A stretch of DNA of 32,434 nt from Acidobacteriota bacterium. GTDB lineage: Bacteria; Acidobacteriota; Vicinamibacteria; Vicinamibacterales; CAVVIG01. The stretch spans positions 1 through 32,434 of the forward strand of contig JAYVYV010000174.1 of NCBI GenBank assembly GCA_043783985.1. The letters are read 5' to 3'. Position numbers and translations under genes: made by a program. The notes beneath the pieces were generated by a model, which was given only the letters and a program-made list of their open reading frames with translations, did no database searches and was not told the origin of the DNA. Shown here piece by piece: positions 6,818 through 28,510 of this stretch. Numbering within the stretch: the first letter of the stretch is position 1; every line of letters begins with the position of its first letter.

Positions 6818-7243
6818 CTACGACCGATGTTCCCCTGGCGCCTCGACCCGCCCGAACAGCAGCAGCGCCACCGCCTGCCGCAGCCCTTCCACGCTGCACG
6901 GCTTCTCGAGAAACGCTTCGTCGGCCCAGAGCGTCACCTTCTCTTTGAACAGGCGATCGCTGAAGCCGGTCAGGTACAGGACCTTGATGCCCGGCGCGGA
7001 GACGCGAACGCGCCGCGCCAGCTCGTCGCCGGTCATCTGCGGCATCATCACGTCGGTCACGAGCATGTCGAACGAGTCGAGCTTCGCGGCGATCGCGAGC
7101 GCTTCCGGACCGTCGGACGCGGTCGTGGTCTGGTACCCCGCATCGTGCAGCACACGCTCGACGAACTTGCGCACGAGATCCTCGTCGTCGACGACCAGCA
7201 CGCGGATCGACCGGGCAGGGGTGGCCTTCACGCGCATGTCCAC
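6818..7243 (-). CDS. Single-domain response regulator (CheY-like receiver)
   Basis: RVLVVDDEDLVR...DMLVTDVMMPQMTGDEL...LEKP: acidic pocket, phospho-acceptor Asp and conserved Lys. GTG start at 7243 preceded by GGGAG. Confidence 0.9.
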   Translation of the reverse strand: MDMRVKATPARSIRVLVVDDEDLVRKFVERVLHDAGYQTTTASDGPEALAIAAKLDSFDMLVTDVMMPQMTGDELARRVRVSAPGIKVLYLTGFSDRLFKEKVTLWADEAFLEKPCSVEGLRQAVALLLFGRVEAPGEHRS

Positions 7244-20630: not shown

Positions 20631-23312
20631 GTGCCTTATACTCGGCCGGTGCGCATCCGCGTGATCCTGTCTCTCCTGGTCTTCTCCATCCCGATCGCCC
20701 TCGTCGGCGAAGGACGCGTCCCGACACCGGAATCGGTCTTCGGCTTCCGACCCGGCGCCGACTACAAGCTCGCAACCTACGATCAATCGATCGAGTACTT
20801 CAAGAAAGTCGCCGCCGGCAGCAAGTACGTGAAGCTCGTCGAAGCCGGAAAGACCAGCCAGGGGCGCGCCATGTACTTTGCCCTGGTGTCGTCGCCCGAC
20901 AACCTCGCCAGGCTCGATCGCTACCGCGAGATTGCGCGGCGTCTTGCGCACCCGCAAGGGCTGACCGACGCCGACGCGAAAACGCTGGCGCGCGACGGCA
21001 GGGCGTTCGTCCACATCGACGGCGGGCTCCACTCCACCGAGGTCGCCGGACCGCAGCACACGCCGCAGCTGCTCTACGATCTGGTCAGCAAGGCGGACGA
21101 AGTCGACACCAGGGCCATCCTCAACAACGTCGTCGTCATGCTGTGGCCGACCATCAACCCGGACGGCCAGCAGATGGTCTCCGAGTGGTACATGCAGAAC
21201 GTCGGCACGCCGTACGAGCTGTCCGGTTTGCCGCGGCTGTACCAGGAATATGTCGGCCACGACAACAACCGCGACGCGTACATGCTGAACATGGTCGAGT
21301 CGCGCGTGCTCGAACACACGTGGCGGCAGTGGGAGCCGCAGATCATTTACGTCCATCACCAGTCGGGTCCCTTTCCCAGCCGCATCTGGCTGCCGCCGTT
21401 CTCCGAACCCGTCGGCAGCGACGCGCCGTTCATCATGTCGCGCGAGGTGAACATGATCGGCATGGCGATCGCCAAGGGTCTCGAGGAGCGCGGGCAGGTG
21501 GGCGCCACGCACATGGGTACGGCGTTCGATGCGTGGTACCCGGGGTACGTGGACTACGCGCCCAACTTCAAGAACATCGCGGCGTTCTGGACGGAGACGG
21601 CGCTCTTCCAGTACGCGACGCCGCACGACTACACGATCGGCGACTTCCCGCAGAACATGCGCGACCTGCGGCCGCAGAGCCTGTACTCGAGCCCGTGGCC
21701 GCCCGGCACATGGCGCCTGCGCGATGCGGTGGATTACATGGAAACGGCGTCGCTGTCGGTGCTCGAGTTCGCCGCGAAATACAAGGACTCGCTTCTCTTC
21801 GATCGGTATCAGGCGGGACGCGATCAGATCGCGCTCGGGAAGAAGAAGGCGCCCTTCGCGTACTTCGTCCCCCAGCAGCAGCGCGATCCGGTCGCGGCCG
21901 TGGAGATGCTGCGCCGCATCGCGTTCGGCGGCGTGCGCGTCTCCATGTTGACCGCGCCCGTGACGATCGGCGGGGACACCTTCCCCGCCGGCACGTGGGT
22001 CGTTCCCACCGATCAGGAATTCGCCGCGATGGCGCGCGAGGTGCTCGACGCGCAGACGTATCCGGATCTGAGGCAGTATCCGGGCGGCCCGCCCGAGCGG
22101 CCGTACGACGCCGCCGGCTGGTCGCTTCCCCTGCAGATGGGCGTGCGGGTGGTCGCGGCGGCGTCGCCACTGACCGACGAGATGCGCGCGAAGCTGACGG
22201 TCATCGGCGCGATGCCCGACCCGAAGAGCAAGCCGACCCCGTACGACGCGGGCCTCCACACCGATGCCGCGCCGTTCGACAGCCTGCCGGGCGTCGGGTT
22301 CAACACGGATCCGGCGTCGGCTGCGATCGTCCCCATGCCGGGGCGGATCACCGGATCGGGACCGGTGCTCCTCGTGGATCCGGCGCAGAACAACGCGTTC
22401 AAAGCCATCAACCGCGCGTGGACGCTGGGGGCGACGGCGCAGGCCAGCGCCGGTGCGGCGGGCGCGCCGATTCGCTACGCTCTGCGCGGCCTCTCGAGCA
22501 GCGCGCAGGAGGACCTGGTCCGGTCCCTGTCGCTACAGGCCGAGCGGGCGGAGTCCGCGCCGGGCCGCGCGGTACGGCGGCCGCGCATCGGCGTGTATCA
22601 GCCGTGGACCGGGAGCATGGACGAGGGGTGGACGCGCTGGGTGCTCGAGCAGTACGGCTTCTCGTTCGTCGCCGTGCACCCGGAAGACTTCACATCGCCG
22701 CTCGCGCAGACCATCGACGTCCTGATCATGGCCGACGATGCGCGTGTGCCGGTGGCGGGGGCGGCCGGGGGGCGCGGCGGACGCGGAGGGCCGGCGGCGG
22801 CGGTGCGGCCCGAGTACGCCTATCAGCTGACGGCGACCGACCTCCAGGGATTCGAGCGGTTCGTCCGCAACGGCGGCACCGTCGTCTGCCTGAGCAACGC
22901 GAGCGCCTTCGCGATCCAGCAGCTGAAGCTGCCGGTGACCAACGTCGTCGCCGGCCTGCGGCCGGAGGAGTTCTTCCTGCGCGGATCGATCGTCGAGGTC
23001 ACTACCGATCCGACGCACCCGGTGATGGCCGGCATGCCCGACAAGGCCGCGGTGTTCGTCGACGGCAGCCCGGTCTTCGAGACGCAGGACGGCTTCAAGG
23101 GCACGATCCTCGCGCGCTACCAGGATTCCGGATCGCCGCTGCTGTCGGGCTATCTGATTGGCGAGCAGCACCTGCAGGGGAAAGCGGCGGCGCTCGACGT
23201 CCAGCTCGATGCGGGCCACGTCGTGCTGATCGGGTTCCGGCCCGAGTGGCGCGGCCAGCCGTTCGGCACATTCCGGATATTGTTCAACGCCGCGCTGTTC
23301 AGCCGTTCGTAA
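20631..23312 (+). CDS. M14-family metallopeptidase (zinc carboxypeptidase-like) with a large C-terminal extension
   Basis: FVHIDGGLHSTEVAG (HxxE zinc ligands), WPTINPDGQQ, YVGHDNNRDAYM. Signal-like RIRVILSLLVFSIPIALVG. GTG at 20631; an alternative GTG lies at 20649. Confidence 0.87.
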   Translation: MPYTRPVRIRVILSLLVFSIPIALVGEGRVPTPESVFGFRPGADYKLATYDQSIEYFKKVAAGSKYVKLVEAGKTSQGRAMYFALVSSPDNLARLDRYREIARRLAHPQGLTDADAKTLARDGRAFVHIDGGLHSTEVAGPQHTPQLLYDLVSKADEVDTRAILNNVVVMLWPTINPDGQQMVSEWYMQNVGTPYELSGLPRLYQEYVGHDNNRDAYMLNMVESRVLEHTWRQWEPQIIYVHHQSGPFPSRIWLPPFSEPVGSDAPFIMSREVNMIGMAIAKGLEERGQVGATHMGTAFDAWYPGYVDYAPNFKNIAAFWTETALFQYATPHDYTIGDFPQNMRDLRPQSLYSSPWPPGTWRLRDAVDYMETASLSVLEFAAKYKDSLLFDRYQAGRDQIALGKKKAPFAYFVPQQQRDPVAAVEMLRRIAFGGVRVSMLTAPVTIGGDTFPAGTWVVPTDQEFAAMAREVLDAQTYPDLRQYPGGPPERPYDAAGWSLPLQMGVRVVAAASPLTDEMRAKLTVIGAMPDPKSKPTPYDAGLHTDAAPFDSLPGVGFNTDPASAAIVPMPGRITGSGPVLLVDPAQNNAFKAINRAWTLGATAQASAGAAGAPIRYALRGLSSSAQEDLVRSLSLQAERAESAPGRAVRRPRIGVYQPWTGSMDEGWTRWVLEQYGFSFVAVHPEDFTSPLAQTIDVLIMADDARVPVAGAAGGRGGRGGPAAAVRPEYAYQLTATDLQGFERFVRNGGTVVCLSNASAFAIQQLKLPVTNVVAGLRPEEFFLRGSIVEVTTDPTHPVMAGMPDKAAVFVDGSPVFETQDGFKGTILARYQDSGSPLLSGYLIGEQHLQGKAAALDVQLDAGHVVLIGFRPEWRGQPFGTFRILFNAALFSRS

Positions 23313-23330
23313 TCAGAGGAGGAGTTCAAG

Positions 23331-24020
23331 ATGAAGACAATGGCACGCACGTTCGGAGTCGGTCTCACGCTGGCGATCGCCGGAGGCTCGTATCTCGCAG
23401 ACGCGCAGCAGCCGCCGGCGGCTCCGGCGCCGCCGATGTCGTTCTTCGTGACGAGCGCCGGATCCGGCAAAGGCGCGGATCTGGGCGGCATCGCCGGCGC
23501 AGATCGGATCTGCCAGACGCTGGCGACGGCTGCCGGCTCCAGCAAGACATGGCACGCGTATCTGAGCGCGGCCGCGGCCAACGGTCAGCCGGCGGTCAAC
23601 GCCCGGGAACGGATCGGCGCCGGCCCCTGGTTCAGCGCGAAGGGAGGGCGGATCGCGCAAAGCGTGGCGGACCTGCACGGCGACACGCTCGAGATGGCCC
23701 GTCGCGGCAACAACATCAACAAGACGACCGCTCTGACGGAAAAGGGGGAACCGGTCAACGGCGTCGGCGACACGCCGAACCAGCACGACATGATCACCGG
23801 ATCGCAGCTCGACGGCACCGCGTTCGCGGACGCGGCGGATCACACCTGCGCCGGTTACACCAGCAGCGCCACCACCGGCGTCGTGCAGCTCGGGCACCAC
23901 GACCGGACCGGCGGCGGCAACACGTCGTGGAACTCGACGCATCCCAGCCGCGGATGCAGTCAGGACAACCTGGTGGCCACGGGCGGCGCGGGACGGTTCT
24001 ACTGCTTTGCGATCAACTGA
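23331..24020 (+). CDS. Secreted protein with endostatin / DUF1554-like (C-type-lectin-fold) motif pattern
   Basis: Strong RBS (GGAGGAG) and signal peptide MKTMARTFGVGLTLAIAGGSYLADA. GIAGADRICQTLATAAGSSKTWHAYLS parallels endostatin [27 protein letters not shown]. The C-terminal FYCFAIN parallels IVLCIEN. It has four Cys in the same order as endostatin. Confidence 0.8.
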   Translation: MKTMARTFGVGLTLAIAGGSYLADAQQPPAAPAPPMSFFVTSAGSGKGADLGGIAGADRICQTLATAAGSSKTWHAYLSAAAANGQPAVNARERIGAGPWFSAKGGRIAQSVADLHGDTLEMARRGNNINKTTALTEKGEPVNGVGDTPNQHDMITGSQLDGTAFADAADHTCAGYTSSATTGVVQLGHHDRTGGGNTSWNSTHPSRGCSQDNLVATGGAGRFYCFAIN

Positions 24021-25057
24021 CGGATGCGATCGATGATGGCTCGCGCGAAGCGGGTGGCTTCCTCGCCGGTTGCACCGCTGGCGAGGAGCCCCTCGTTGAG
24101 CTGACGCTCGGTCAGCCGGCCGGCGTATGCGTGAAACCAGCGGGCGTGTTCCGTCGTGACGTCGCCCGCGATGTCGGCCGTGCGCTGGCCGGTGTAGCCG
24201 AAGCGGACGCGGCTACCGTCGACGCCTGTGACGAATTCGGGGGTCTGCGCCTCGAAGCCCTCGGGGTCCCAGCGGCCCCGCGTCACGATCGTCGTACCCC
24301 ATCTACCCATCGAACCGCCCCAGTCGGTGAGGAGATACCGCGCCTCGTGACGCACGCGCGGCCAACGGCCGGCGCGCTGCTCGAAGATCGCCGTGTTCGA
24401 CCCGCGCGCGACGTCGCGGCGATCCTTCGAGTCCCAGTTCGAGAGGAGCATCACCAGAATTTTCAGCCCGCTCAGTTCGGGCGTTCCGACAAACGGGTTG
24501 TCGTCCCACGACCAGCTGTGTTCGTCGAAGAACTTGTTGACGGCGGGGTCGTCGAGCTCGAATCTCGCGTCGACGAAGGCACCGTCGGCGCCCTGGATGC
24601 AGTCGCGCGCGCGCTTCAGTGCGGGGCCGTCGCCCCCGAGGTCGATCGTCCCGGACGGCACGAAATGCGTCACTTCCGCGAAATAGCCGCACGCCCACGC
24701 GAGCCGGACCGCGAACGTCTCAACCCGGGCTTCGTGTCCCCATTTCACGCGCCACCGGCGCCCCCGTGCGTCGCGCACGGACACACAGGGCTGCGAGCCG
24801 CTGCTGTGTTCTTGGATGAATCGAAACGGCGGCGCGGGCGCACCGTCCGGACCGCCGGGGCCATGCGCGAGGCTCAACGCCTCGACTACTCCGGGGTCGC
24901 GCCAGATGGAATGCCGCGACGCCCGAAGCCGCCGCGGACCGGCTTTGCGGAGCCGGTACAGGCCGACCACATGCCACACGGCACGGAGAAAGAGACGGCC
25001 GAGGACGAGGCCCGCGATCGCGCCCCCGACCCACAACATCGCGTCGGTCGCGCTCAT
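23999..25057 (-). CDS. Membrane-anchored protein-kinase-like-fold protein (uncharacterised family; paralogue of 25856-27013)
   Basis: 352 aa. A TM helix ([18 protein letters not shown]) is followed by the basic stretch [15 protein letters not shown]. Motifs [32 protein letters not shown]...SN and LLTDWGG align with the paralogue. Confidence 0.8.
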   Translation of the reverse strand: [352 protein letters not shown]

Positions 25058-25073
25058 GGTGTAATGGGTGCCA

Positions 25074-25259
25074 ATGGATGATGGGTTCGACGTGACATGC
25101 CCGTACTGCGGAGAGCAGGTCGAAATCTACCTCGAGCCGGACGTGACGGGCACGTTCGTCCAGGACTGTGAAGTCTGTTGCAACCCGTGGCGCGTCCGCG
25201 TATCCGGATCCGGCGAGACTCGAGACATCGACGTCGGACGTGCCGACGGGTCGGAATAA
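25074..25259 (+). CDS. CPXCG-motif cysteine-rich (zinc-finger) small protein
   Basis: MDDGFDVTCPYCGEQVEIYLEPDV...FVQDCEVCCNPW matches the CPxCG ... DCxVCCxP pattern of that family. ATG at 25074; an upstream GTG lies at 25068. Confidence 0.85.
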   Translation: MDDGFDVTCPYCGEQVEIYLEPDVTGTFVQDCEVCCNPWRVRVSGSGETRDIDVGRADGSE

Positions 25260-25292
25260 CGCCGGGTGGTGCCCTGCGGCACCCTCGGCGCC

Positions 25293-25751
25293 TTACCCGC
25301 GTCCGCGCTGTTTCATCGTCTTCATCGACGCCTTGCCGGCCTGAAGCGTCACGCGCTTGGCTTCGGCCGCGACCGTACGGAGATCGCGCGGAACCGGCTT
25401 GCGGTGCTTCTTACCCGGAGCATCGACCACGCCGCCGCTGCGGCCCCTGGGGCTCTTCGAGCTGGTGGCGGCGCTGACCGCCGTCTTCTTCGCGGCTTTG
25501 GTCAGGCTCGTCACGCCATCGGAGAGTTGGTCGAGCAGTTCGGCCGCGCTGTCGCGCACGCTGGTGATCTGCTTGTTCAGCGCGTCGCGGTCCATCCAGC
25601 CTTCAGCCCTGGCCTGAACGGTGCCCACCATTCGCCCGAGTTGCTCCGCGAACGCCATCACCCGCTGCTCCATGGCGTCGGTGGCCGTGTTGTTGGCTGT
25701 CCTGGCCGTTGGTGCAGTGCTCCCTTTCCCGCCGTTGTCGCGCTTCGCCAT
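25293..25751 (-). CDS. Small basic hypothetical protein (helical core, Lys/Arg-rich C-terminus)
   Basis: ATG at 25751 preceded by GGAG (6-nt spacing), 152 aa, high third-position GC. The sequence runs MAKRDNGGKG...EQRVMAFAEQLGRMVGTVQARAEGWMDRDALNKQI...GKKHRKPVPRD...KTMKQRGRG. The 60-aa upstream extension in the track is rejected. Confidence 0.65.
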   Translation of the reverse strand: MAKRDNGGKGSTAPTARTANNTATDAMEQRVMAFAEQLGRMVGTVQARAEGWMDRDALNKQITSVRDSAAELLDQLSDGVTSLTKAAKKTAVSAATSSKSPRGRSGGVVDAPGKKHRKPVPRDLRTVAAEAKRVTLQAGKASMKTMKQRGRG

Positions 25752-25855
25752 GCGAGCTCCATATCTGTGGCGTTCAATCGCCGCCCGATCGTGAGCAGGT
25801 TTCATGCCGCCGACTCGCCTCAGCTGGCGCACGCCTTGCTCTGGTGTCGGGCGTG

Positions 25856-27013
25856 ATGAGGCGCTGGTACCTAGTTTCGACCGCCGCGTTTCTGGCGGCC
25901 TCAATCGCGCTCGCGGTATGGCTGCTCCCAACCGGGCGCGAGCAACCGCCGTACGCCTTCGCGCGCGCGCGGGTGAAACATGCCTGGCCGATCGACGGGT
26001 CGGCGCCGGAAGACTCGCGAACGCACGCGCTCAGGCTGGCCCGGGTCTGGATGCCGACCGACGCGGCGTCGGTGGACCTCGGGATCAACCCGGCTGACCC
26101 CGCCGGCACGTTGTCGGAGACGATCGTCCGCTGCCGCTACCTCGACAGTCCCGCCCGCGGCACGACGGCGAAGTTCGACTGCGTGCTGCGCGACGGCGAA
26201 GTCGTGAAGGTGAAATACGGACACACCGGCGAAATTCACGCGGAGCTCGCCGCCACCCGCCTGCTGTCCGCGCTCGGCTTCGGCGCCGATCGCATGTTTC
26301 TGATCCCAAGCCTGCGCTGCTACGGCTGCGTCCGGACGCCGTTCTACACGAACTGGTTGCTCGACAAAGTCCATGCGCGAGAGCTGGTGGTCGCTTCGGT
26401 TGCGGACGACCGCTACACCGACTTCTCCTGGGTCGCGGTCGAGCGGCGCTTCGACGGCCTGTCGATCGAGGCCGGCGACCACGAGGGGTGGGCGTGGTTC
26501 GAGCTCGAATCGATCGATCCCGCGGTCGGCGCCAACCAAGCGGAACGTGACGCGCTCCGCCTGATGGCGATCCTGCTCGCGCACTGGGACAACAAGGCCT
26601 CCAACCAGCGGCTCGTCTGCCTCGCGCCGGAACCGTCAGCCGCCGCACCCTGTCCCCGCCCGTTTGCGTTGATCAACGACCTCGGCGCGACCTTCGGGCC
26701 CAACAAGGTGGAACTCGACCACTGGAAAGCGGCGCCGATCTGGGCGGACCGCGGGCGCTGCACGGTCAGCATGCGACAGTTTCCATACAGCGGCGGTACG
26801 TTTTCCGACAGGACGATCTCGGAGGCCGGGCGCCAGCTGATCGCGCATCAGCTGGCCGCGCTCACCGCGCGTCAGGTGACGTCGCTCTTCTCGGGCGCGC
26901 GGTTTCGTGAATTCTACGGAGGCAGAGGCGCGGACGCCGACGTGGGCGCCTGGACAGCGGTGTTTCTGGACAAGGTCCGGCAGATCGCGGACGGCGGCCC
27001 CTGCCCGTCGTAG
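25856..27013 (+). CDS. Membrane-anchored or secreted protein-kinase-like-fold protein, Cys-rich (uncharacterised family; paralogue of 23999-25057)
   Basis: The ATG at 25856 gives MRRWYLVSTAAFLAASIALAVWLL (N-in anchor or signal). Motifs: VVKVKYGHTGEIHAELAATRLLSALGF; HWDNKASN (26582-26605, an HxDxKxxN pattern); INDLGATFG (D at 26678-26680, a DxG). Eight Cys. The upstream 49 aa of the track ORF overlap the divergent gene and are rejected. Confidence 0.8.
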   Translation: MRRWYLVSTAAFLAASIALAVWLLPTGREQPPYAFARARVKHAWPIDGSAPEDSRTHALRLARVWMPTDAASVDLGINPADPAGTLSETIVRCRYLDSPARGTTAKFDCVLRDGEVVKVKYGHTGEIHAELAATRLLSALGFGADRMFLIPSLRCYGCVRTPFYTNWLLDKVHARELVVASVADDRYTDFSWVAVERRFDGLSIEAGDHEGWAWFELESIDPAVGANQAERDALRLMAILLAHWDNKASNQRLVCLAPEPSAAAPCPRPFALINDLGATFGPNKVELDHWKAAPIWADRGRCTVSMRQFPYSGGTFSDRTISEAGRQLIAHQLAALTARQVTSLFSGARFREFYGGRGADADVGAWTAVFLDKVRQIADGGPCPS

Positions 27014-27022
27014 GCGTTGGCG

Positions 27023-28510
27023 TTATTTCGTGCGCGGCTTCACCTGGTCGATGTACCACCCGACGCGAGCCGGCGAATCGCCATGCGACTCGGATCCGTT
27101 CAGGTAATACCGGACGACGCCGCCGGCGTCCACATAGAAGGTGGCCGGCAGGTTGTCGAATCCCATCGCCGTTTCAGCCTGTCGCGCGTCCATACGCACC
27201 ACCGGGAAGGGAAACTTCATCTCGGCCAGATAGCGTCGCAACCGCTTGTCGTCTTCGTCGAGGCTGACTAGCAGGAAGGCCACGCCGGGGTCGGCTTGAT
27301 ACTTCGCGTACGAGGCTTTCAGGTGCGGTAACTCCGCACGGCAGATCCCTCACCAGGAGGCGAAGAAATTCAGGAGCAGGACCTTGCCGCGAAGGCCCGA
27401 TGCGTCGTACGGCTTTCCACCGAGGTCCGTGAACGCCAACACCGGGAGGGGCCGATCGACCAGGCTTCTCAGCGCAGCGGCCTTGCGCTCGTCGCGGCGC
27501 CGCGTGAGCTCGGACTCGAGCCACGCGTCGAACCCGGCGGCGTCGCCGCCCTGCGTCTGGAGGGCGGCCAGCGCGTCCTTGGCCCGCTGCCGCAGCGGCG
27601 CGAGGCCGCCTGCCAGCGAGAGCGCCTCGAGATAGTGATCGCGCGCGCGCACGGGCACCTTCTGCACCCGCGCGAGCTCGGCCATGTGAAACTGGTTCAC
27701 GACGTCGAGCCCCTGCGACAGCCGTTCCGCTTCCCCGAGTTTCGCGGCCGCGGCCGCGTAGTCCTTCTCGAGCACCAGCGCCCATCCGGCGAGATCAGCC
27801 GCCGCGGCCCGTCCGCGCGCGTAGGCGCTCTGTGACTTCCCGGTCATCTGATACGCGCTGAGATTCTCGTCGATAAAGCGATCGGAAGCGGCGGCGCCGC
27901 GGCCGGCCAGCGCGATCGCGCGGTCGTACTCGCCGCGATCGATCAGCATCTGCGCGCCGGTAAAGAACGGCGCCGGATCGGCCTGCGCCTTGGCGCGCGC
28001 CTCGACGGCCGCGAGGATCTGCGCGACCACAGCGGGGTCAGACGCCGATGCCGGCGCCGTGGTCTGCAGGGCCAGTAGCGCCGCGTCGAGCGCGCGGATC
28101 TCCGGGCGCGGCGGCGCGGGATCGACGGTGTCGGCGGCGGCGAAACCTTCCGCGACGCGGAGGGCGTCCCGAGCGGATGCGCGGCCCGGATCGGTGGCGA
28201 CCGCGGTCTTCAGCTCGACCAGCGCGCGCGCGCGGAGCGACGGCTCGTCGTGCCATCCGGGAAACGCGTTTTCCTGCTGCCACCCCTTGAAAGTGTACAG
28301 GCGGCCGAGCGCTTCGTGCGCCGCCGCCTTGGTGTCGCGATCGCGCGCCGCCTCTTCCAGCGCCGCGATCGCACTCTTCGCCAGCCGCTGTTCCCACAGC
28401 GCGGTCCCGCGCGCCAATGGCTCCCGCGGCGGGCTCTGGGCGGACCCGCCGGCGGCTGACGCGAGGACGGCAACGGCTATCGCACACGCGGTGGATCTCG
28501 TCACGCGCAC
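27023..28510 (-). CDS. TPR-like + TlpA/ResA-like thioredoxin-fold protein with in-frame UGA at the CxxC position (probable selenoprotein, U-G-I-C)
   Basis: Track ORFs 27350-28510 and 27023-27283 are in the same frame. Reading through the TGA (27352..27350) gives ...GKVLLLNFFASW-U-GICRAELPHLKASYAKYQADPGVAFLLVSLDEDDKRLRRYLAEMKFPFPVV...NLPATFYVDAGGVVRY. This is a complete TlpA-like domain with the stop at the first redox Cys. N-terminal signal peptide MRVTRSTACAIAVAVLASAAGGSAQ. Confidence 0.72.
27323..27352 (-). other. UGA plus candidate bacterial SECIS hairpin
   Basis: The mRNA reads UGA-GGGAUCUGCC-GUGCGG-AGUUA-CCGCAC: a 6-bp GC-rich stem starting 10 nt after the UGA, with a 5-nt apical loop whose second base is G. 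A possible lower stem forms between GAGG (overlapping the UGA) and CCUC downstream. Confidence 0.5.

Follow-up and report, generated by a model that had tools for sequence, protein, structure and literature searches.

Two genes on contig JAYVYV010000174.1 of a soil Acidobacteriota bacterium (GenBank assembly GCA_043783985.1), referred to here as A and B, probably encode kinase-like phosphotransferases with a full conserved catalytic set, the domain of B being exported and that of A lying at the cytoplasmic face of the membrane; we put the probability of this reading at roughly 0.6. Both genes lie in a window of 32,434 nucleotides, the whole stretch of DNA analyzed, with a G+C content of ~68%. 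Gene A (23999–25057, minus strand) is an open reading frame of 352 aa with a predicted N-terminal membrane helix and a kinase-like domain of the D-W-G type, and gene B (25856–27013, plus strand) is an open reading frame of 385 aa with a predicted N-terminal signal anchor or signal peptide and a Cys-rich kinase-like domain. Codon bias is coding-like for A and B alike (G+C content of 0.84 at third codon positions vs. 0.54 at second positions). Coordinates of features within A and B are given below on the minus and plus strand, respectively.

The kinase-like superfamily is known, and within it the A/B family has neither a Pfam nor an NCBIfam model, although it comprises ~2,900 clusters at 50% identity. 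For most members, which keep a complete catalytic site, export is predicted; this is surprising in Gram-negative bacteria, in whose periplasm ATP is generally taken to be absent, and we know of no phosphorylating enzymes that work in the bacterial periplasm. The pair offers a natural comparison of one domain on two sides of the same membrane, and a recurrent pairing of relatives with purple acid phosphatases (PAPs) provides a concrete, testable system for bacterial phosphorylation beyond the cytoplasm. At a minimum, a new family definition is justified, with thousands of “hypothetical protein” labels to be corrected.

Family membership and catalytic residues

A first-pass annotation of this DNA had described A and B as divergent paralogues of an undescribed protein-kinase-like (PKL) family, aligning at three blocks. 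The blocks are real: BLASTP aligns A with B at E = 1e-4 (26% identity over 188 aa), and a profile–profile comparison with hhalign, of a profile of 47 A-type sequences with one of 46 B-type sequences, gives 95.6% probability and E = 1.2e-8 over 284 columns, reaching the C-terminus. On these alignments, A and B are true remote paralogues. The motif positions, the coordinates, and the eight Cys of B reported earlier all agreed with a coordinate check.

Searches of sequence databases returned 2,362 homologues of A and 2,415 of B, none of which carries a Pfam domain, and a family profile run against 1.84 billion representatives recovered 2,928 clusters (50% identity) at E ≤ 1e-3 and 1,644 at E ≤ 1e-10. 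Homologues that bear a name are all annotated as “hypothetical protein”, and looking up the clusters of ten diverse relatives yielded no other name. Taxon labels of members are Acidobacteriota, mostly Vicinamibacterales, with Blastocatellia for a third (C-like) clade; the exceptions are one Gemmatimonadales metagenome-assembled genome and two metagenome-assembled genome records titled Bifidobacterium/Bifidobacteriaceae. Neither A nor B matched Pfam-A (E up to 1), NCBIfam, PADLOC, or PHROGs, and phmmer searches of both against PDB sequences returned noise only. The sole PDB chain found by the family profile was the N-lobe of actin-fragmin kinase, at a marginal E = 0.029. No description of the family was found in literature searches, and the Pfam-linked PKL families of the KINtaro list are covered by the negative Pfam scans of A, B, and their relatives. 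Within the reach of Pfam-A, NCBIfam, PDB sequences, PADLOC, PHROGs, and the Pfam-linked KINtaro families, the family is undescribed, as had been proposed; we regard it as a family of its own in the kinase-like superfamily, the comparison with the KINtaro list having covered its Pfam-linked families.

Conservation was evaluated in a diverse set of 81 sequences (A, B, and 79 diverse members) and in close-homologue sets of 120 sequences for A and 121 for B. In B, the β3 Lys (K120) and αC Glu (E126/E130) lie within residues 116–130 (VVKVKYGHTGEIHAE; 26201–26245), on a strand (116–120) and a helix (125–139) of the predicted model, and are found in 79/81 (K120), 79/81 (E126), and 75/81 (E130) of the diverse relatives and in 120–121 of the 121 B-family sequences. 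The catalytic loop HWDNKASN (residues 243–250; 26582–26605), placed after helix 228–240 and before strand 251–255, supplies the pattern D245-x-K247-x-x-N250; D245 is present in 81/81 sequences, K247 in 71/81, and N250 in 73/81 (Gln in six), and all three are present in 121/121 B-family members. The DFG equivalent, D-L-G (residues 275–277; 26678–26686), follows strand 269–273, with D275 and G277 each in 81/81. Two further residues in B numbering, R135 and G281, are at least 90% conserved in the 81-sequence alignment. Ahead of the β3 Lys, GTTAK (residues 102–106; 26159–26173) occupies the β1–β2 region between strands 91–96 and 106–110, and this G-x-x-x-K element (G102 in 76/81 and K106 in 78/81 diverse relatives) is a candidate phosphate-binding loop.

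The same set can be traced through A, where the β3 Lys K105 and αC Glu E109/E113 (residues 103–113; 24719–24751; model strand 101–106 and helix 109–122) are each found in 120/120 close homologues. Its catalytic loop (residues 207–221; 24395–24439) contains D209, K211, and N221 together with a seven-residue insertion; D209 is conserved in 119/120 sequences, and K211, D212, D215, and N221 in 120/120, D212 and D215 being counted as inserted residues. The D-W-G motif (residues 245–247; 24317–24325) corresponds to DFG, with D245, W246, and G247 each in 120/120. The Lys/Asp/Asn/Asp set is thus conserved both across the diverse set and among the close homologues of A and B, a point named beforehand as a check on the kinase-like assignment.

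The 81 sequences fall into three clades: B-like (n = 39), with at least eight Cys and no catalytic-loop insertion; A-like (n = 19), with D-W-G, 0–4 Cys, and an insertion of 5–8 residues in 16/19 that is absent in the other three; and C-like (n = 23), with NNWDLKxxNN and SDLGATFG motifs, 0–4 Cys, and no insertion in 20 members or a single residue in three. B has exactly eight Cys (93, 109, 155, 158, 255, 266, 302, and 383), which are kept in 120–121 of 121 homologues; A has three, replaceable among its homologues. A Cys-rich subgroup (P0323, P0338, P0346, P0367, P0382, and P0389) reads Q-H-[TGS]-D-[SN]-K-x-x-Q-Q-[RE] in place of H-W-D-N-K-x-x-N-Q-R, so that Gln stands in place of Asn at the metal-binding position and the Trp is missing; both Asp are retained.

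The gap for the insertion in A was placed differently by MAFFT and hhalign, and the predicted local distance difference test score (pLDDT) of the model is low across this stretch. Relatives without an insertion read NWDIKRANTAVV (A-like) or NWDLKRSNTGAL where A reads NWDSKD[RRDVARG]SNTAIF. Since the loop of A lines up with the insertion-free NWDIKRANTAVV, N221 of A corresponds to N250 of B; judged against these relatives, the original placement of the insertion was right. The accompanying proposal that A may be a pseudokinase, made from the Asn that replaces the catalytic-loop His and from the insertion, does not hold up. The insertion is itself conserved, and the residue before W-D is usually Asn in the A-like and C-like clades, His being found in most B-like members. 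Because the catalytic set of A is invariant and the Asn is usual for its clade, A looks competent rather than degenerate as far as its residues can tell.

Predicted fold and relation to known kinases

Confident AlphaFold2 models were obtained, with a pLDDT of 87.5 and a predicted template modeling score of 0.86 for B, and with 82.7 and 0.80 for A. Both models have a bilobal, kinase-like fold, a class defined by a β-rich N-lobe with one regulatory helix and a helical C-lobe. The motifs of B follow one another in the model as a strand ending at K120, the helix with E126/E130, helix 228–240, the loop D245..N250, two strands, and D275-x-G. When compared with the PDB by Foldseek, B retrieved Helicobacter pylori CtkA (3akl/3akk; E = 2.5e-4, probability 1.0, template modeling score (TM) up to 0.51 on the target) as its top match, followed by matches to HipA, actin-fragmin kinase (sixth), HipT, Fam20C, PI4KIIα, and VPS34; A retrieved actin-fragmin kinase (1cja; E = 2.6e-3, probability 0.99), followed by Fam20C (ranks 2–6), Rio2, and HipA. 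Matches with a probability >0.5 were kinase-like folds without exception for both models. This comparison, which had been named in advance, bears out the predicted PKL fold. The earlier kinase-like assignment therefore stands for the motifs and the fold, but not for the nearest group: judging by the models, the closest folds belong to the atypical CtkA/HipA/actin-fragmin kinase/Fam20C group rather than to canonical eukaryotic-like kinases.

Atypical Ser/Thr kinases of the HipA/CtkA type (HipA_C PF07804; CtkA 3akl/3akk, HipA 4pu5/3tpt, and HipT 7ab3) are the best structural matches of B, and HipA is also matched by A. HipA presents its catalytic Asp..Asn and then Asp in the same order, and a non-significant hhalign alignment puts HipA D309/N314 on D245/N250. 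The G-x-x-x-K of the family, ahead of the β3 Lys, resembles the G-x-Q-x-K loop of HipA, and CtkA is also secreted. In contrast, the HipA catalytic loop is D-x-H-x-K-N rather than D-x-K-x-x-N, the HipA N-terminal domain is missing here, and A and B differ from HipA and CtkA in their N-terminal export or anchor sequences and, in B, the eight Cys. HipA_C (PF07804) was matched weakly and not significantly by 2/81 members (best E = 0.0074) and HipA_2 (PF20613) by 1/81 (E = 0.024). Membership of the HipA family was rejected, the family profile giving 0.2% probability against Escherichia coli HipA. Neither the window nor related loci showed a HipB, HipS, or other HTH antitoxin-type partner.

The Physarum actin-fragmin kinase (1cja, PF09192), the top match of A, is aligned by the family profile across a G-T-x-x-[K/L]-F element, a V-K strand, and a Glu-containing helix. 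It differs in being eukaryotic and cytosolic, the sequence match, confined to the N-lobe, falls short of significance (the E = 0.029 above), and PF09192 matched neither A and B nor any of the 81 relatives. Fam20C and other secretory-pathway kinases are exported, disulfide-containing enzymes that act outside the cytosol, and are distant structural matches of both proteins, but share no sequence similarity with them (TM ~0.3). Neither Fam20 (PF06702) nor CotH (PF08757) was matched by A, B, or relatives in Pfam scans.

Canonical eukaryotic protein kinases (PF00069) share H-x-D-x-K-x-x-N, a D-x-G ~30 residues later, the β3 Lys, and the αC Glu. They differ in their G-x-G-x-x-G loop, where B has G-T-T-A-K, and in the C-lobe, which here ends in a family-specific helical region. 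Foldseek probabilities of B against true eukaryotic protein kinases are low (0.1–0.44), and the Pkinase PF00069/PK_Tyr_Ser-Thr models gave no match at E up to 1 for A and B or 0.1 for the 81 relatives. PI3K/PI4K (PF00454) likewise gave no Pfam match, the loop being D-x-K-x-x-N and not D-R-H-x-x-N, and PI4KIIα and VPS34 are weaker structural matches of B than CtkA. A further family, SEAE1 (WP_147203046.1; 2026 HOMD preprint), has been reported with residues K140, R146, D216, N221, D241, and D243, with Arg at K+6 and a D-x-D. The A/B family has Glu at K+6 (B) or K+4 (A and C-like) and an invariant D-x-G, and SEAE1, compared by its reported motifs only, is probably a different family.

Topology, associated phosphatases, and proposed activity

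Topology was assigned by the positive-inside rule from flank charges over 108 A-type and 114 B-type sequences. In A, a hydrophobic helix (residues 6–30; 24968–25042; helix 3–39 in the AlphaFold2 model; mean hydropathy 2.36 over the 108 homologues) is followed by a strongly basic stretch (residues 34–49; 24911–24958), which predicts an N-out/C-in orientation; the mean flank charge of A-type proteins is +0.76 before the helix and +3.36 after it. In B, residues 1–24 (MRRWYLVSTAAFLAASIALAVWLL; 25856–25927) form a positive N-terminus and then a hydrophobic helix (2–22 in the model), predicting N-in/C-out, and the corresponding mean charges are +3.23 and +0.16. The start of B is ATG 25856, rather than an upstream TTG at 25709 that is not conserved, because B homologues begin with M-[RK]-R-W, as B does (MRRW). 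The charge bias thus supports a cytoplasmic domain for A and an exported one for B, in line with the opposite topologies first proposed. The accompanying picture of a family with one inside and one outside member had to be abandoned: the family is large and mostly exported, with an N-in score in 69/81 diverse relatives and signal peptides or lipoboxes in ~85%, lipoboxes being borne by many, B-like relatives included, and the orientation is convincingly reversed only in the clade of A itself.

Relatives of both proteins were also evaluated for associated genes. A Metallophos gene (~324 aa, exported, with a lipobox) is the immediate convergent neighbor of B-type genes in 38/66 loci and lies within 8 kb of them in 51 loci; its product resembles the mammalian PAP ACP5/TRAP (E = 1.5e-15). 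C-like relatives lie in operon-like arrangements: the PKL gene, f25, and a PAP gene run in one direction in locus L167 (6001–8709), PLD, f25, and PAP genes diverge from the PKL gene in L170 (2123–6017), and PAP, PKL, DUF4956, and PLD-like genes follow each other with overlapping stop and start codons in L028. A module of this kind recurs in different Acidobacteriota lineages (L024, L027, L028, L038, L054 at ~7.7–14.5 kb, L167, and L170), its parts being an exported ACP5-like PAP, f25 (~200 aa, exported, no Pfam family), a DUF4956/MgtC-like membrane protein, and a PLDc_2 protein with a weak PPK-C match. This tie in relatives hints at a cycle in which phosphorylation is written and erased within the cell envelope. 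Fam20C acts in the Golgi, and ACP5/TRAP dephosphorylates its substrates, osteopontin among them; the ACP5-like PAP beside B-type genes parallels this eraser.

We propose that A and B bind a Mg-nucleotide between their lobes and that both would be active phosphotransferases, with the loop Asp acting as base and the Asn and the D-x-G Asp holding the metals. The acceptor would probably be a hydroxyl on a protein or an envelope molecule, since a Lys at D+2 is typical of Ser/Thr-type kinases. B would be exported via Sec, either remaining at the outer side of the inner membrane or being released from it, and would be stabilized by its eight invariant Cys; A would be held at the cytoplasmic face by its N-out/C-in anchor and carries a conserved seven-residue basic loop insertion. 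The two would need neither each other nor the zinc-ribbon and small basic protein genes that lie between them, and in relatives exported PAPs would probably reverse the modification.

Several points weigh against this proposal. To our knowledge, the periplasm is generally held to lack ATP, and B would be an exported ATP-dependent kinase without an obvious phosphate donor; the Golgi, in which Fam20C acts, imports ATP, and we know of no such supply for the periplasm. Charge bias is the sole basis of the topology assignment, and the Lys–Glu bridge, active-site geometry, and disulfide pairing are putative. TM-scores to solved kinases are low (0.26–0.51), with large root-mean-square deviations and modest Foldseek E-values (2.5e-4 and 2.6e-3), and the kinship of A and B to these kinases is therefore distant. 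The phosphatase partner is absent from this window, as are the other module genes, and the convergent layout of B-type and PAP genes is not co-transcription and could partly reflect inherited synteny in Vicinamibacterales.

A broader scheme, which we consider doubtful, would place the family in an extracytoplasmic phosphorylation system of Acidobacteria, in which Sec-exported, membrane- or lipid-anchored kinases write phosphate on envelope proteins, glycans, or lipids, exported PAPs erase these marks, and the A clade is a secondary flip to the cytoplasmic face. Such a system would require a phosphoryl donor in the periplasm, which could be exported nucleotide or a non-ATP donor such as polyphosphate. 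Genes of the CotH kinases, another atypical kinase-like family, are contiguous with a DUF4956 membrane-protein gene, in a set with a polyphosphate polymerase in Gram-positives (bioRxiv 10.1101/768473), and this parallels the PAP-PKL-DUF4956-PLD layout of C-like relatives. The CotH set differs in that no VTC-type polyphosphate polymerase was seen in the family loci and the partner genes are not in the window. A polyphosphate donor is hinted at by this gene set and by the DUF4956 and PLD/PPK-C-like genes beside C-like relatives, and may be called motivated rather than shown.

Alternative explanations and gene neighborhood

Among alternatives to the phosphotransferase reading, the one that fares best is a kinase-like fold without phosphotransfer, as in a pseudoenzyme, a ligand-binding scaffold, or an enzyme of AMPylation (SelO-like) or glutamylation (SidJ-like). 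It would fit our knowing of no ATP supply for the exported domain, as well as the incomplete conservation of K247 (71/81), the change of N250 to Gln in 6/81, and the distant fold matches. SelO-type enzymes, however, show altered motifs, whereas the canonical phosphotransfer set is invariant in A and B and near-invariant across the family, with the loop Asp and the D-x-G Asp in 81/81, and we regard this alternative as unlikely. PKL families with other activities are reviewed in the KINtaro paper.

Less likely again is that B is a secreted effector or toxin that acts, like H. pylori CtkA, in another, ATP-containing cell. In favor of this, B matches CtkA best in structure, is rich in Cys, and has a predicted exported domain, and the family is expanded, with several paralogues within single loci. 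Against it, the long N-terminal hydrophobic helix and the lipoboxes of B-like relatives suggest that the protein stays in the envelope, and the phosphatase found as conserved partner is a lipoprotein belonging to the same cell. The surroundings showed no genes for secretion systems, immunity, or toxin delivery, and PADLOC and PHROGs gave no match.

The gene neighborhood bears on a further alternative, that A, B, and the two genes between them form one module in which a pair of kinases signals across the membrane, its inside member being coupled to the outside one. The two intervening genes were confirmed as earlier described: a CPXCG zinc-ribbon gene (25068–25259, plus strand; 63 aa; Pfam PF14255 at E = 5.6e-12), which diverges from A across a 10-bp gap, and an open reading frame for a small basic protein (25293 to about 25751/25805, minus strand; ~152–170 aa, with start candidates at 25751, 25805, and 25931) that matched no family in Pfam, NCBIfam, PADLOC, or PHROGs. 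The order A, zinc ribbon, basic protein, B recurs in locus L001 and, with a frameshifted A, in L002; B-type paralogues adjoin A in ~8/63 A loci, and some Vicinamibacterales loci group A-like, B-like, and C-like genes together. Loci L004–L006, however, encode an M14 peptidase, a 229-aa protein (p229), the zinc ribbon, the basic protein, and B without A, and L007 has the same genes apart from p229, again without A. The zinc-ribbon gene stays beside B in L001, L002, and L004–L007 whether or not A is present, and only where B is at least 63% identical do the zinc-ribbon and basic genes accompany it, B genes of ≤54% identity having neither nearby. Across 63 metagenomic loci, the neighbors of A vary with no dominant one; they include xth, MacB, HrpB, and response regulators, and most A genes stand alone next to unrelated housekeeping genes. 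Finally, transcription directions alternate (A leftward, zinc ribbon rightward, basic protein leftward, B rightward), which makes one shared transcript impossible. The four-gene cluster, whose conservation had been named as a point to check, thus breaks up: the loci without A and the variable neighbors of A indicate that A and B are independent genes, adjacent here by chance, and that a joint module is very improbable. The zinc-ribbon gene is a neighbor whose partnership with A or B is not shown, and the basic protein gene is a neighbor only.

That the kinase-like assignment is an artefact of misleading models and chance motifs, for which the TM-scores of 0.26–0.51 with large deviations, the 0.2% probability for E. 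coli HipA, and the lack of a Pfam kinase model could be cited, is scarcely credible, given that two independently modeled paralogues retrieve only kinase-like folds near the top, that the order and spacing of the four motifs fit the predicted strands and helices, that the expected catalytic residues are exactly the invariant ones in 81 diverse sequences, and that an independent sequence profile picks actin-fragmin kinase.

Loci differ cleanly in whether gene A is present: L004, L005, and L006 lack it. The p229 and zinc-ribbon genes of L004 lie just 24 bp apart (7143–7167), where the same gap holds A in the window (23999–25068); in L001, this gap is filled by a MacB-type gene and A. The A orthologue of L002 (4042–5077) lies in two frames (tblastn pieces 4653–4042 and 5077–4661; only 273 aa from the gene caller), which reflects either a pseudogene with a frameshift or a fault in the assembly. 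A cardiolipin-synthase-like gene was considered as a partner of A and rejected; it lies beside A relatives of 55% identity and is absent from loci of the clade of A itself.

The start codons of A and the zinc-ribbon gene are 10 bp apart in the window (25057–25068) and 9 bp in L001, so that each promoter must lie within the coding region of the other gene. The 3′ ends of A and the converging p229 gene overlap by 22 bp (23999–24020). A promoter and terminator scan of 23200–27500 performed no better than on shuffled sequence. A plus-strand open frame of 1,312 aa (21143–25081), which spans the M14 gene, p229, and the antisense of A, is taken to be a high-GC artefact because a codon-bias gene filter kept A, M14, and p229 instead, and A has 2,362 homologues.

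The remaining genes of the window encode peptidases and housekeeping functions. One of them is a large M14 carboxypeptidase-like gene (20631–23312; 893 aa); in 21 loci (L013, L016, L029, L050, L053, and others), B-type genes have such a gene no more than 8 kb away, at varying distance and orientation. Downstream of B, a TPR and thioredoxin-like gene (27023–28510, minus strand) is interrupted precisely at its redox motif by an in-frame TGA (27350–27352), reading W-TGA-G-I-C; selenocysteine, a pseudogene, and an error in sequencing are each possible explanations. A hairpin downstream of this codon (GUGCGG-AGUUA-CCGCAC) is not significant (z = −1.2), and no tRNA-Sec gene was found in the window. 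In five orthologues of this gene, the redox motif reads WCGIC or WCGAC.

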